A model generated the notes under the pieces. That model had not been told where the DNA came from, did no database searches, and saw nothing but the letters and a program-made list of their open reading frames with translations. Positions 3,777 through 32,072 of a stretch of 64,000 nt of DNA are shown piece by piece. The stretch lies in assembly GCA_937974825.1 (NCBI GenBank), contig CALJVD010000033.1, positions 6,957 through 70,956 on the forward strand, given 5' to 3'. The stretch comes from an uncultured Oceanospirillaceae bacterium (lineage in GTDB: Bacteria; Pseudomonadota; Gammaproteobacteria; Pseudomonadales; Oceanobacteraceae). The position numbers were made by a program, and so were the translations under genes. How positions within the stretch are numbered: position 1 is the stretch's first letter; each line of letters starts with the position of its first letter.

Positions 3777-5153
3777 TTAGGGATAAAGCTTTTCAGGCAG
3801 CCAAGTGGCTATTTCTGGCCAGAGCGCCAAGGCAATAAGCAGAAGAACCTGAATACCAATAAAGGGCGCAACGCCACGATAAATAGTGCTGGTTTGTATG
3901 CTCTTCGGCGTAACACCTCTTAGATAAAACAAAGCAAAACCAAAGGGTGGCGTTAAAAATGATGTTTGTAGGTTAATGGCAATCATAATACCTAACCAAA
4001 TAGGATCGACACCCATCATAAAGAGTACAGGCGCTACTATAGGCACAACCACTAGGGTGATTTCAATAAAATCTAATATGAATCCTAGGAAAAAGATAAT
4101 CACCATGACCAGTAACATGGCTGAGAAGACACCGCCGGGTAACTGATTAAAGAAATCGTGAATGAGCTCTTCGCCACCAAACCCGCGGAAGGTTAGTGAG
4201 AACAGCGCCGCGCCAATTAAAATCATAAACACCATGCCTGATACTAATAGGGTGGAGTTCATAACCTCTTTTAAACGACCAAGACTTAACTGCCCGTACA
4301 TGGCTGCTAAAACAATAGAACAGCCTGCCCCTATGCCGGCGGCTTCAGTGGGCGTGGCAATACCGGTTAAGATAGAACCCAGTACCGCAATAATTAACAC
4401 CAACGGTGGTAGTAAGCCTTTGAGTAACTCAAAGATAAAAGCAATATTTAATGCTGGGCGGTCAGATACTGCCGGCGCTGCTGCAGGACGAAATAACGCC
4501 ACAAAGCTAATATAAAGAAGATATAAGACAACCAGTAGTAAGCCGGGAATCAGCGCGCCAACAAATAAGTCGGCAACCGAAATACTGTCAGGACTAAAAA
4601 TCCCCATTTTTAATTGAGACTGCTGATAAGCACTGGAAAGAACATCGCCTAATATAATCAGAACCGTCGAGGGAGGGATGATTTGTCCAAGCGTACCGGT
4701 TGCGGCAATAGTACCGGTTGATAAAGCCGGACTGTAATTCTGCTTCAGCATAGTCGGAAGCGATATTAGCCCCATGGTGACAACGCTGGCACCGATAATA
4801 CCGGTACTAGCGGCCAATAACGCACCGACCAACACTACGGAAAACCCCAGGCCACCACGCATCGGTCCAAAGAGTAGCCCCATATTGTGCAGTAATCGCT
4901 CTGCTACACGAGACTTTTCAAGCATCACGCCCATAAATACAAACAGGGGCACCGCCACTAAAATTTGATTGCTCATGATGCCAAACACCCTGTTAGGGAA
5001 GGCATTTAAGAAAGCGGGATCAAAGGTATTGGTGAGAATCCCAATACCGGCAAATAGCAAAGACACACCGGCCAACGTAAAGGCAACAGGAAACCCTGCC
5101 ATTAATACGATGCACACACAGATAAACAGCAGAATCGCCATAAAACCGATCAT
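3777..5153 (-). CDS. TRAP transporter large permease subunit (DctM family)
   Basis: 458-aa polytopic membrane protein with typical DctM length and sequence character. Its ATG overlaps the upstream dctQ stop (TGATG at 5151-5155). Confidence 0.85.
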   Translation of the reverse strand: MIGFMAILLFICVCIVLMAGFPVAFTLAGVSLLFAGIGILTNTFDPAFLNAFPNRVFGIMSNQILVAVPLFVFMGVMLEKSRVAERLLHNMGLLFGPMRGGLGFSVVLVGALLAASTGIIGASVVTMGLISLPTMLKQNYSPALSTGTIAATGTLGQIIPPSTVLIILGDVLSSAYQQSQLKMGIFSPDSISVADLFVGALIPGLLLVVLYLLYISFVALFRPAAAPAVSDRPALNIAFIFELLKGLLPPLVLIIAVLGSILTGIATPTEAAGIGAGCSIVLAAMYGQLSLGRLKEVMNSTLLVSGMVFMILIGAALFSLTFRGFGGEELIHDFFNQLPGGVFSAMLLVMVIIFFLGFILDFIEITLVVVPIVAPVLFMMGVDPIWLGIMIAINLQTSFLTPPFGFALFYLRGVTPKSIQTSTIYRGVAPFIGIQVLLLIALALWPEIATWLPEKLYP

Positions 5154-5674: not shown

Positions 5675-5831
5675 GAATTGCCCAACGTTAACATTAAACG
5701 CAGCATCGGTATTATTTTAATCATGCGATGGTCTACGGTGGAATTTCACGTATTATAGCGACCTAAACAGGATGTTCCTAACGCCAAAAGATAGAAAAAA
5801 GCATTTTAAGGAAAGAAATTGAAAAAAAGAG

Positions 5832-5873: not shown

Positions 5874-5949
<76 letters not shown>

Positions 5950-9198: not shown

Positions 9199-9519
9199 AT
9201 GGATATAGTATCTGAAATAGCACGCCATATTCGTCACTACAATGGACAGATAGCTTTTGCTTTAGTCGTGACTCTGCTGGTGATTTTTGGCGGCGAGATT
9301 AACCGCACCATTCGAAAGCTTGTGGCAGGTTGGAATGTGATGCTACGCGTATTGGTGTTCGTTATATTCTGTGCACTAGGTTACGGGCTTTTGGCGTCTT
9401 GGCTTACTGGTTTTTTACAAGGGCAATTACGCGGATTATCAAACCCAGTGTATCTCGTGGTGGTAATAGGGTCTTTTGTAGTATTAGGCTGGTTAGCTGA
9501 GAGAGGTCGTTGGCGTTAG
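9199..9519 (+). CDS. Small integral membrane protein, function unknown
   Basis: 106 aa with three hydrophobic segments. An AGAGGA ribosome-binding site lies just upstream, and the gene follows the amidase closely on the same strand. Confidence 0.55.
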   Translation: MDIVSEIARHIRHYNGQIAFALVVTLLVIFGGEINRTIRKLVAGWNVMLRVLVFVIFCALGYGLLASWLTGFLQGQLRGLSNPVYLVVVIGSFVVLGWLAERGRWR

Positions 9520-9532
9520 AAATATTGCAGGC

Positions 9533-9725
9533 AAAAAAATAGGGCGATTAAAACTTCCTGTAGTAATCGCCCTGCACCCTAGCGCCGTCCTGGTTATCTA
9601 GATTCATTCATCCTTAACAGTCCGTTGTATTCCGCATGCACTTCCAGTGCTTGTTATTATCCTTTGAGACTTCCTAGTCGTATCCATATGCTGTGATCCG
9701 TACAGCCTTGTGCATCCCTACAACA
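9533..9725 (-). ncRNA. CsrB/RsmY/RsmZ-type CsrA(RsmA)-sequestering sRNA (candidate); 5' end uncertain
   Basis: This lies in an ORF-free gap. The minus strand has 11 GGA motifs in about 190 nt. The plus-strand TCC positions are 9556, 9588, 9611, 9621, 9631, 9643, 9660, 9672, 9683, 9697 and 9715. Many are in A(N)GGA context (AAGGATG, CAAAGGATA, CTAGGAAG, ATGGATA, ACGGATC). The 3' end is a 10-bp GC-rich hairpin (9541-9550/9564-9573) with GGA in its loop, followed by T7. A candidate -10 TAATAT lies at 9729-9734. Confidence 0.7.
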
Positions 9726-9902
9726 GCTATATTAGCAAAGCCCTTATATTTTATGGGGACGAAAGATACAAAATGTTACATTTTCTAAAAGACATTTCTT
9801 TCAGGGGGATTAATAAAACCTATATAAAACAAAGGGTTATGATTTTTCTTGAGTTGATGAAGGGGTTTTTCTAGTGAACATGACTTGAAAGTCTTACTGC
9901 TT

Positions 9903-9920
9903 TGTAAGACATGTCTTACA
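9903..9920. promoter_or_regulatory. GacA/UvrY-type upstream activating box
   Basis: Perfect 18-bp palindrome TGTAAGACATGTCTTACA, which fits the TGTAAG-N6-CTTACA consensus. It lies about 190 bp upstream (minus-strand sense) of the GGA-rich element. An extra GTCTTAC half-site sits at 9891-9897. Confidence 0.65.
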
Positions 9921-10024
9921 CGAGAGTGGTGAAATGTCTTGAAATGTAATCACATTGTGAGCAGAAATACTGCGAAAAGAGTGGCAAACTCCGAACGGTT
10001 ACGGAGTTTGGTGTAGAAGAGTTG

Positions 10025-10714
10025 TTACGCCCGACGCTTAGAGTTAACTAATGCAGAGAACCCTTGAGGGTCGACCAACTCGCCATCGTCCCCTATTTCT
10101 GGGTAAGGAATGTTTCGTTGCTGACAGAATTTAGTGATTTGCGGTTGGCACCATTCAAAGAATAAACGGTTGTAGGTGTCATCATCGAGACGACGATGCT
10201 CTAACATGCCCGCAGCTTTACGTTGCCGAATCGCTTCAGACAATAACATGGATGCCGCTACCGAAACATTAAACGATTCCACCATGCCATACATAGGGAT
10301 AATTAGATGTTCGTCAGCCAGCTCAGCGGCCTTTTCACTGATGCCATCTAATTCTGATCCCATCAGAAGTGCGGTTGGCTGAGTAAAGTCGTATTCACGG
10401 TAATCTTTAGCGCTATCGCTTAAATGAGCTGCGCAAACGCGTAGACCTTGTTGCTTTAGGTGATCAATAGCGCCTTCAATAGATTGATGAGTCACTACTT
10501 CAACCCAGTTGCCACTGCCAGCAGTTTGATTGCCAAACAAACGGTATTTTTCATCTAACCAGACGTTATGAACTTTAGGTACAGCAAAAGCATCACAGCT
10601 GCGTACTATGGCAGAGAGGTTACGTTCTTTATGAACCTCGTCACATAAAATAGTCAGGTCAGGCTGACGTAAATGAAGCGTTTGTTTAATACGTTGTAGG
10701 CGTTCAGGCGTCAC
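10025..10714 (-). CDS. trmH: tRNA (guanosine(18)-2'-O)-methyltransferase, SpoU/TrmH family
   Basis: TPERLQRIKQTLHLRQPDLTILCDEVHKERNLSAIVRSCDAF.. parallels the E. coli TrmH N-terminus, and SpoU motifs are present (LLMGSELDGIS, IPMYGMVESFNVSVA). I prefer the GTG at 10714. The ORF track extends to 10762 with a non-conserved hydrophobic leader. Confidence 0.82.
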   Translation of the reverse strand: MTPERLQRIKQTLHLRQPDLTILCDEVHKERNLSAIVRSCDAFAVPKVHNVWLDEKYRLFGNQTAGSGNWVEVVTHQSIEGAIDHLKQQGLRVCAAHLSDSAKDYREYDFTQPTALLMGSELDGISEKAAELADEHLIIPMYGMVESFNVSVAASMLLSEAIRQRKAAGMLEHRRLDDDTYNRLFFEWCQPQITKFCQQRNIPYPEIGDDGELVDPQGFSALVNSKRRA

Positions 10715-10785
10715 TGCTAAAATCACCGCATAAAATAAAAGGCGGCATTGTATAAAAAGCATTCACTAAATGCACGGAGGAAGCG

Positions 10786-11538
10786 ATGCAAGGAAATTTT
10801 TTGTTAGGAGTGCGCTATTTTTTTGATGGCGTGAAGTATATGCGCCAACCCGGCATTAAGCGCTACGTGGCGTTGCCTATACTCTTCAATATCATTTTAG
10901 TTGGTGCAGCCAGCTGGTGGGGCGTCACGTTAATTACCGACTGGATGAGTGATTTGGCACAGTGGTTTCCAAGCTGGCTAAGCTGGTTATATTGGATACT
11001 GATGCCTTTGCTGGTGATAACCTTTGTTATCGCTCTTGCCTATTTTTTTAGTACATTTCTAATGATACTTATGGCGCCAATTAATGGCTTGCTGAGTGAG
11101 AAAGTCGATTTGCTTGAGGGTGCCAAACTACCGCCCGAATCTCTGTGGTCTATGACCAAGCGTACGGTGTTTCGTGAACTGGTAAAACTTGGGTACTTAA
11201 TACCGCGCTATCTTATTATTATGTTGCTAAGTTTTGTGCCACTCGTACAACTGGCTGTGCCCTTTATTGCTATGGTGTTTGCAAGTTGGGTGATGGGGAT
11301 GCAGTACATTGATTACTCGTTCGATAATCGCAAAATTCACTTCAAAGAAACCAAAGCAGCTCTGCATCAAGACCGTTTAACCGTACTGGGGTTTGGTGCC
11401 ACTGCAGCCGTGTTATTTACTATTCCTGTGGTGAACTGGTTTGTAATGCCTGCCGCAATCATTGGCGCTACTTTAATGAATAAGCCAAATGATATCGATA
11501 AATCAGGCGTACTAAGCAACCAAGTAGTGAAGCGCTAG
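10786..11538 (+). CDS. cysZ: Sulfate transporter CysZ
   Basis: 250-aa membrane protein. The N-terminus GVRYFFDGVKYMRQPGIKRYVALPILFN is typical of CysZ, and the length matches. Confidence 0.75.
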   Translation: MQGNFLLGVRYFFDGVKYMRQPGIKRYVALPILFNIILVGAASWWGVTLITDWMSDLAQWFPSWLSWLYWILMPLLVITFVIALAYFFSTFLMILMAPINGLLSEKVDLLEGAKLPPESLWSMTKRTVFRELVKLGYLIPRYLIIMLLSFVPLVQLAVPFIAMVFASWVMGMQYIDYSFDNRKIHFKETKAALHQDRLTVLGFGATAAVLFTIPVVNWFVMPAAIIGATLMNKPNDIDKSGVLSNQVVKR

Positions 11539-18459: not shown

Positions 18460-18545
18460 TGGTGCGGAAGGAGAGACTCGAACTCTCACACCTTGCGGCG
18501 CTGGAACCTAAATCCAGTGCGTCTACCAATTTCGCCACTTCCGCA
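18460..18545 (-). tRNA. tRNA-Leu (anticodon UAG)
   Basis: The reverse complement is GCGGAAGTGGCGAAATTGGTAGACGCACTGGATTTAGGTTCCAGCGCCGCAAGGTGTGAGAGTTCGAGTCTCTCCTTCCGCACCA. This is a class II tRNA with a long variable arm and anticodon loop TT-TAG-GT. Confidence 0.92.
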
Positions 18546-31890: not shown

Positions 31891-32072
31891 TGCTCCCTGG
31901 GGTGTTAGCCAGTGGTAAAGACCTGAGCCGATGCTATTATTTTTGGAAGGTTCATTTATTATTGTGTGCATGTCTGCTTCGGCGGAAAGCCTAATATAGT
32001 AATTGTCCTACCACCTTGGACCATAGGGTTCAAGGGCTTTACCAACATCAGCGGCACAGCGGGGAGCCCCAC
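31891..32072 (+). ncRNA. ssrS: 6S RNA
   Basis: About 182 nt between zapA and ygfA. It contains CCUGAGCCGAU near the 5' side and ACCUUGGACCAUAGGGUUCAAGGGCUUUAC...GCGGCACAGCGGGGAGC near the 3' side, matching conserved E. coli 6S segments. The 5' GCUCCCUGGGG pairs with the 3' CGGGGAGC. A TACAAT -10 lies at 31880-31885. Confidence 0.9.

Follow-up and report, generated by a model that had tools for sequence, protein, structure and literature searches.

The 64-kb stretch of DNA analysed in this study (the window) contains an intergenic gap between trmH, which is read on the minus strand, and a convergent plus-strand gene for a 106-aa membrane protein assigned to DUF3392 (Table 1). An NCBIfam search gave no match for the DUF3392 protein, and its gene is syntenic with the element described here in close relatives. 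It had originally been predicted that no ORF explains the gap. This is true for ORFs above 54 aa, but mechanical ORFs of 20-54 aa do exist on both strands, and those that overlap the element are not conserved. As listed, the trmH ORF is longer (245 aa) than its homologues (227-231 aa), most alignments begin at about residue 17, and the true start is therefore probably downstream of 10762. Further into the same neighbourhood, the window ORFs for ubiA and cysZ overlap by 27 nt (11512-11538), while in the relatives L081, L082 and L083 a gene for a CheY-like response regulator (1208-2158), which the window lacks, lies between them. A terminator scan found a terminator-like hairpin that belongs to trmH itself. 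Because trmH has this hairpin and the DUF3392 gene is convergent, the minus-strand element between them can be regarded as a free-standing transcription unit.

Table 1. Features of the gap between the DUF3392 gene and trmH, with positions in the window
Feature	Position	Strand	Remarks
DUF3392 gene	9199-9519	+	convergent neighbour; 106-aa membrane protein
sRNA (predicted)	9533-9724	-	about 190 nt; predicted 5' end 9724-9721, placed from the -10 element alone; 3' end in the T-run 9539-9533
3' module, family-wide	9532-9604	-	CUAG...CCAGGAnGG...CUAG hairpin; AGGGUGC block 9580-9574; terminator with CAGGAAG loop
Intrinsic terminator	9533-9573	-	10-bp stem 9573-9564 (AGGGCGATTA) / 9550-9541 (TAATCGCCCT); loop CTACAGGAAGTTT; T7 9539-9533
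Small GGA-loop hairpins (predicted)	9706-9690, 9679-9668, 9650-9638, 9628-9617, 9601-9579	-	
GGA triplets	9717, 9699, 9685, 9674, 9662, 9645, 9633, 9623, 9613, 9590, 9558	-	
Extended -10 element TGCTAATAT	9729-9737	-	TAATAT at 9734-9729
A+T-rich linker, box to core promoter	9738-9890	-	G+C 28-33%, against 44% for the window
IHF-like site TAACCCTTTGTTT	9827-9839	-	matches YAANNNNTTGATW with one mismatch; YAANNNNTTGATW is the IHF consensus WATCAANNNNTTR in reverse complement
Third half-site GTAAGAC	9891-9897	-	direct repeat of the left half of the palindrome, 5 nt downstream of it
GacA/UvrY box (predicted) TGTAAGACATGTCTTACA	9903-9920	-	18-bp palindrome; perfect match to TGTAAG-N6-CTTACA
Terminator-like hairpin of trmH	9985-10010	-	terminator scan; separates trmH from the sRNA promoter
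trmH	10025-10762	-	upstream neighbour of the sRNA, same strand
Mechanical ORFs, plus strand	9693-9788, 9710-9874, 9625-9696, 9939-10016	+	20-54 aa
Mechanical ORFs, minus strand	9604-9687, 9916-9987	-	9604-9687 is 27 aa, inside the RNA

Eleven GGA triplets, the number given in the original prediction, lie on the minus strand of 9533-9725, and none lie on the plus strand. When a 193-nt frame was slid across the 64 kb, the window-wide mean was 1.25-1.38 GGA per frame, the maximum outside this region on both strands was 6, and frames with at least 10 GGA were found solely with starts in 9507-9782. No other part of the window, on either strand, is as dense in GGA. The chance expectation of roughly 3 given originally was of the right order: the base composition of the region alone yields 4.6, and dinucleotide shuffles of the region gave 5.55 +/- 1.62, with 4 of 5000 shuffles reaching 11. 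The A(N)GGA context that had been claimed for most of the triplets was found for nine of the 11. The regular 10-nt phasing that had also been pointed out is present at 9633, 9623 and 9613 (TCC at 9631, 9621 and 9611 on the plus strand), but the same intervals are 10 and 11 nt in relatives. Since exact phasing is not kept in close relatives, it carries no weight here. The RNA sequence is 80-88% conserved in the relatives L081, L082, L083 and L205, with almost every GGA position retained.

In the predicted fold of the RNA most of these triplets are exposed. Nine of the 11 have at least two bases with an unpaired probability of at least 0.68, whereas the GGA at 9613 and partly that at 9623 are predicted to be paired. 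Over 22 family members the mean predicted unpaired probability was 0.71 for GGA and 0.36 for other positions. In a consensus fold of five window-type sequences, five hairpins and the terminator likewise have GGA in their loops and the rest are in linkers, so that three sets of predicted structures (the window RNA, the five-sequence consensus and the 22 members) all show GGA in loops or free regions. The stability of the whole-RNA fold (z = -1.44) gives no independent support, because the molecule as a whole is not unusually stable; this is usual for the class of CsrA-sponge RNAs.

The 3' end of the element is an intrinsic terminator. Its stem, its GGA-bearing loop and its T7 are exactly as originally described, but the stem, which had been called GC-rich, has just 50% G+C. 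The statement that the T-run lies on the minus-strand side only also holds, as no T-run follows the shared hairpin on the DUF3392 strand. The 10-bp stem is kept in related genomes and it covaries. Over 23 sequences the terminator helix is 96% paired, compared with 35-48% for slid controls; compensatory changes occur in eight of its 13 pairs; and double-change cells number 50 in the helix and 2-7 in the slid controls. None of 500 shuffles attained the observed covariation score. Covariation was counted for the terminator helix alone; MAFFT misregistered the penultimate hairpin of the Oleispira sequences, and there is no family-wide alignment of the RNA body because the number of hairpins differs between members. 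In a group of orthologues (L006, L007, L008, L009, L013 and L014) no T-run follows the terminal hairpin (for example CCGCCCATTTAGCTCC), and termination in these may be inefficient or may occur elsewhere.

The terminator is part of a 3' module that is found in all genera of the family, consisting of the CCAGGAnGG hairpin, an invariant AGGGUGC block and the terminal hairpin with its CAGGA(U/A)G loop. In Oleispira copies the main GGA hairpin is followed by an additional small one, TTCTAAAGGATTAGAA.

The region upstream of the RNA was not part of the original prediction, and what lies there is the strongest point for assigning the element to a class: a predicted GacA/UvrY box within a promoter that resembles, in layout, those of csrB and rsmZ. 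About 190 bp separate the centre of the box from the predicted transcription start downstream. The box is the one exact match to TGTAAG-N6-CTTACA in the 64-kb window, where about 0.004 perfect boxes (12 specified bases) would be expected by chance. Allowing two mismatches added one further box-like match in the window, an unrelated site at 1366, and the pattern derived from the clade, also allowed up to two mismatches, matched the window at 9903-9920 alone. A palindrome of the form TGT[GA][AC]GAnATATCTCACA occurs at the equivalent position in 25 related loci. The site is thus a perfect box with a position that is kept across the clade, and its binding by the regulator is a prediction. The third half-site is kept as well, since GT[AG][AGC]GA is found 5-6 nt past the box in the family (26 sequences).

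Between the box and the core promoter, the A+T-rich linker varies in sequence between relatives, and its length is almost constant. The IHF consensus is matched with 0-1 mismatch at +81/+82 from the start of the box in 23 of the 26 family sequences; for two of the remaining three, the listing counts from a displaced start of the box. The linker leads to an extended -10 element, and TGnTAnnnT stands just upstream of the first GGA in all family members. No recognisable -35 element was found upstream of the extended -10 in the window, where CCCATA occupies 9757-9752. A scan with the sigma-70 consensus gave no minus-strand promoter at the sRNA locus because the -35 is missing, and the promoter was recognised instead by its conservation across relatives. 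Twenty-six sequences, drawn from five or more genera, conserve its geometry: the half-site follows 5-6 nt after the box and, counted from the start of the box, the IHF-like site comes at +81/82, the extended -10 within +170-185 and the first GGA within +191-205. The placement of the extended -10 at 9737-9729 gives the predicted start at 9724-9721 and an RNA of about 190 nt. The offset of the extended -10 falls at +183 to +185 in window-type sequences and at +170 to +175 elsewhere, with one exception at +182. Judging from these offsets, the difference of one helical turn (about 11 bp) fits a face-of-the-helix constraint on DNA looping.

The comparisons above were drawn from 80 trmH loci of GTDB species representatives, together with loci of close relatives and two metagenome contigs. 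The window TrmH shares 58-69% identity with its most similar proteins from Thalassolituus, Oceanobacter and uncultured Oceanospirillaceae; nearer relatives (81-88%) were seen in raw read-archive assemblies only. A GGA-dense region downstream of trmH and on the trmH strand is found in Thalassolituus, Oceanobacter, Bacterioplanes, Bacterioplanoides, Oleispira and related MAGs. No such region was present at the trmH loci of Marinobacter, Marinospirillum, Oceanospirillum, Cellvibrionaceae, Endozoicomonas or Photobacterium. The conserved unit comprises the box, linker, -10 element, GGA hairpins, 3' block and terminator, around an RNA body of about 150-510 nt (151 to 513) with 8-35 GGA. The window element shares the synteny of this family (downstream of trmH on the same strand) along with its fixed promoter geometry. 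A pattern scan of metagenomes returned 120 loci, of which two were true homologues (L192 and L205), while the others had matched the 16 specified bases by chance. At many of the related loci the sRNA is followed, 0.7-1 kb downstream, by a tRNA gene on the opposite strand.

Family membership was also examined with a covariance model, R1, built from 15 sequences of other genera (Thalassolituus, Bacterioplanes, Oleispira and similar) and containing no window-type sequence. R1 matched the window at 9532-9604 on the minus strand (49.9 bits, E = 2.2e-13), which was its only significant match in the 64 kb, so the window element carries the defining 3' module of this trmH-linked family of GGA-rich sRNAs. 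On 48 further loci, matches to R1 were confined to the Thalassolituus/Oceanobacter/Oleispira/Bacterioplanes clade. A weak match in the window (8.7 bits, E = 0.41) is probably due to chance; it falls on AACAGGAUGUU at 5766-5776 (+), a perfect miniature of the CAGGAUG hairpin loop about 100 nt upstream of a tRNA gene.

With Rfam 15 at the gathering score, the whole window had no Csr/Rsm match and returned solely 6S RNA and two tRNAs. The 6S RNA (SsrS) is at 31891-32069 (+) (RF00013, 98.4 bits, full length), and the tRNA genes are at 5874-5946 (+) and 18463-18544 (-). Relaxing the cutoff to E <= 10 for 9400-10100 still produced no Csr/Rsm match, and the matches that did appear there (Clostridiales-1, mir-4864 and RsaE) were at chance level. 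No Csr/Rsm family was reached at the gathering score in 20 related loci either. Two orthologues came closer. That of Oceanobacter kriegii (L007) scored 55.7 bits (E = 3e-14) against CsrB (RF00018), which is below the gathering score of 71, and that of Thalassolituus maritimus (L006) had a weak score of 16.7 bits against RsmY, where the threshold is 57. These sub-threshold scores place the family at the edge of clan CL00106, below the threshold of each of its families, among them CsrB (RF00018), CsrC, RsmY (RF00195), PrrB_RsmZ (RF00166) and RsmX. The window copy is the most divergent of the family. The suggestion that the RNA could be a lineage-specific member missed by existing covariance models is borne out, as it has no Csr/Rsm match in Rfam and yet is conserved across several genera.

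Kulkarni et al. set out five defining sequence criteria for CsrA-regulating sRNAs (PMC1488887): a high concentration of A(N)GGA, GGA in loops or free regions, a Rho-independent terminator, a conserved upstream GacA/UvrY site and an intergenic location. The window element has all five, which supports the original assignment to the CsrB/Rsm class. The likeness to CsrB of E. coli and Salmonella (RF00018, CL00106) is closest in the promoter. In these organisms csrB has an 18-nt inverted repeat, TGTGAGAGATCTCTTACA, centred at -183, and E. coli csrB has an extra, partially conserved sequence 5 bp downstream of it; an IHF site between the repeat and the start is required for optimal UvrY binding and for tenfold activation (PMC4682653). 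The window shows the same arrangement of a repeat about 180-190 bp upstream, a partial site 5 bp further on and an IHF site. The two RNAs also share short hairpins whose loops are of the CAGGA(U/A/C)G type, and both end with an intrinsic terminator. The loop motif of the family, CAGGAUG, is identical to the CsrB repeat consensus. CsrB is about 369 nt long with about 18-22 sites, whereas the window RNA is half that size (about 190 nt, 11 GGA), has no detectable similarity to RF00018, sits at another genomic location (downstream of trmH) and carries an AGGGUGC block that is specific to its family.

RsmZ, RsmY and RsmX (RF00166, RF00195 and RF02144) of Pseudomonas, which depend on a GacA box for their activation, resemble the window element in this box, in GGA in hairpin loops and linkers and in a rho-independent terminator. 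RsmY and RsmZ are about 115-125 nt. The window RNA is longer than these two and has no match to any of the three models, and its synteny is unlike that of Pseudomonas rsmZ, which adjoins fdxA/rpoS. The upstream region of Pseudomonas rsmZ has a UAS at -196 and an A+T-rich region that is bound by IHF in P. protegens (PMC4950607).

Two known cases come from the same order. In Marinomonas mediterranea, RNA-seq showed that the CsrB and CsrC sRNAs depend on the GacS/GacA homologues PpoS/PpoR (PMC8523701). These two had been predicted from the kinds of feature seen in the window element, namely ANGGA motifs, a terminator and a GacA box, which in M. mediterranea is about 160 nt upstream; CsrB, at 203 nt, is close in size to the window RNA (PMC8523701). 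The csrC promoter of M. mediterranea additionally shows, as here, a half-site past the box (GTAAGG) and, in the linker, a TTGAT motif. However, the bodies of these RNAs have no apparent similarity to the window RNA, the AGGGUGC block and the 3' module are absent from them, and their boxes are imperfect. CsrR1 and CsrR2 of Alcanivorax dieselolei, a marine degrader of alkanes, are, like the RNA described here, lineage-specific, GGA-rich, CsrA-related sRNAs outside Rfam, but their loci are different ones, namely the 5' UTR of hfq and a position antisense or adjacent to a ferredoxin gene (PMC9788540). GacA does not occur in the main text of that paper (PMC9788540). A literature search on CsrA/GacA with Thalassolituus, Oleispira, Oceanobacter and Oceanospirillales found no description of a trmH-linked RNA. 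No paper linking CsrA to Thalassolituus, Oleispira or Oceanobacter was found, and no Csr sRNA is catalogued there.

We consider it probable, at about 85%, that the minus strand of 9520-10025 encodes a CsrA sponge sRNA of about 190 nt that is activated by GacA/UvrY with the help of IHF. The sequence features, the conservation across genera, the covariation of the terminator and the fixed geometry of the promoter are all observed; transcription, dependence on GacA and IHF, and binding by CsrA are inferred by analogy with homologous systems. On the sequence comparisons made here, this unannotated but conserved gene is most likely an uncatalogued, lineage-specific member of the CsrB/Rsm class in a clade of marine oil degraders. 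In the proposed mechanism, a phosphorylated regulator of the GacA/UvrY type would bind some 190 bp upstream of the start, at the 18-bp palindrome and probably at the third half-site too. IHF would bend the A+T-rich linker so that the regulator could meet RNA polymerase at the extended -10 without a -35. The transcript would start near 9722, stop in the T-run at 9533 and present about 11 GGA, six of them in hairpin loops (terminator included) and the others in single-stranded linkers. Several CsrA dimers could then bind these GGA and be titrated off their mRNA targets, which would relieve translational control by CsrA. Searches of the 64-kb window by tblastn with CsrA and UvrY found no csrA or uvrY/gacA homologue, so the presence of csrA and gacA in this genome is an assumption of the model.

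The AGGGUGC block is invariant in 23 of 23 family members, which exceeds the conservation of every single GGA site, and titration of CsrA leaves it unexplained. Its mean predicted unpaired probability of 0.37 makes it neither clearly paired nor free. This raises the alternative of a GacA-controlled sRNA that acts mainly in another way, for example by Hfq-dependent base pairing with AGGGUGC as the seed and with the GGA motifs being secondary. However, the part of the RNA that varies and expands among orthologues is the GGA hairpins (8-35 sites), which is what would be expected of a sponge and not of a seed. The orthologue of O. kriegii DSM 6294 (L007) is an example, being about 510 nt long with 35 GGA and containing a 53-nt unit in 3.1 tandem copies of 92% identity (4084-4248); these copies suggest that the body of the sponge grows by tandem duplication. 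The CAGGAUG loop, identical to the repeat consensus of CsrB, and the near approach of the same orthologue to the Rfam CsrB model also speak against base pairing as the main activity, and we regard that alternative as unlikely.

A second alternative is that the element is not an independent gene, but part of the trmH 3' UTR or of read-through from trmH, or else a cis-acting leader of a neighbouring gene. In the window the element does lie directly downstream of trmH on the same strand. Against this, trmH has its own terminator-like hairpin (10010-9985), and in many relatives, close ones and members of several genera, an opposite-strand gene of 271 aa comes between trmH and the element, while the box, linker and -10 move with the element. 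This gene (271-276 aa) is located between trmH and the sRNA promoter in L081, L082 and L083 (3648-4478) and is missing from the window; NCBIfam gave nothing meaningful for the 271-aa protein. As for a leader, no gene follows on the same strand: the DUF3392 gene converges on the element, and a terminator closes the RNA. This explanation is very improbable.

That the gap is a non-functional spacer enriched in GGA by chance, or that it encodes a small protein, is scarcely credible even though shuffles of this purine-rich region already give 5.6 GGA and a 27-aa ATG ORF exists at 9604-9687 (minus), given that conservation of the element extends across genera, with substitutions that preserve its structure, that R1 matched it blind (E = 2e-13), and that the ORF was dropped as a candidate for non-conservation, its ATG being missing in three of four relatives (L081, L082 and L083) and the alignment having indels of 1-2 nt.

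In a reading that goes beyond a plain CsrA sponge, the constancy of the 3' block and the variability of the GGA hairpins, which expand partly by tandem duplication, could be combined into one model, in which a constant AGGGUGC control module is joined to a tunable GGA sponge, and in which the csrB-type promoter is ancient and the RNA body was replaced. This joint model is offered tentatively and is, on balance, doubtful. The AGGGUGC block could be a determinant of turnover control of the CsrD/RNase E kind, a base-pairing seed or a second protein site. If the model is true, a csrB-type promoter consisting of inverted repeat, half-site and IHF site has been kept from the Enterobacteria to this clade while the RNA body it drives was wholly replaced. 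The promoter layout shared with E. coli csrB suggests, as far as sequence comparison can indicate, that looping by UvrY/GacA and IHF is ancestral in the Gammaproteobacteria. This deep conservation of a csrB-type promoter and the invariant 3' block are the most interesting loose ends of this study.

The alignments and the model presented here are a possible seed for a new Rfam family, and the range of 8-35 sites among orthologues provides a natural series for the evolution of sponge capacity. For the organisms themselves, the RNA would supply the missing RNA of the Gac/Csr cascade in ecologically important marine hydrocarbon degraders, namely Thalassolituus, Oleispira, Oceanobacter and their uncultured relatives.
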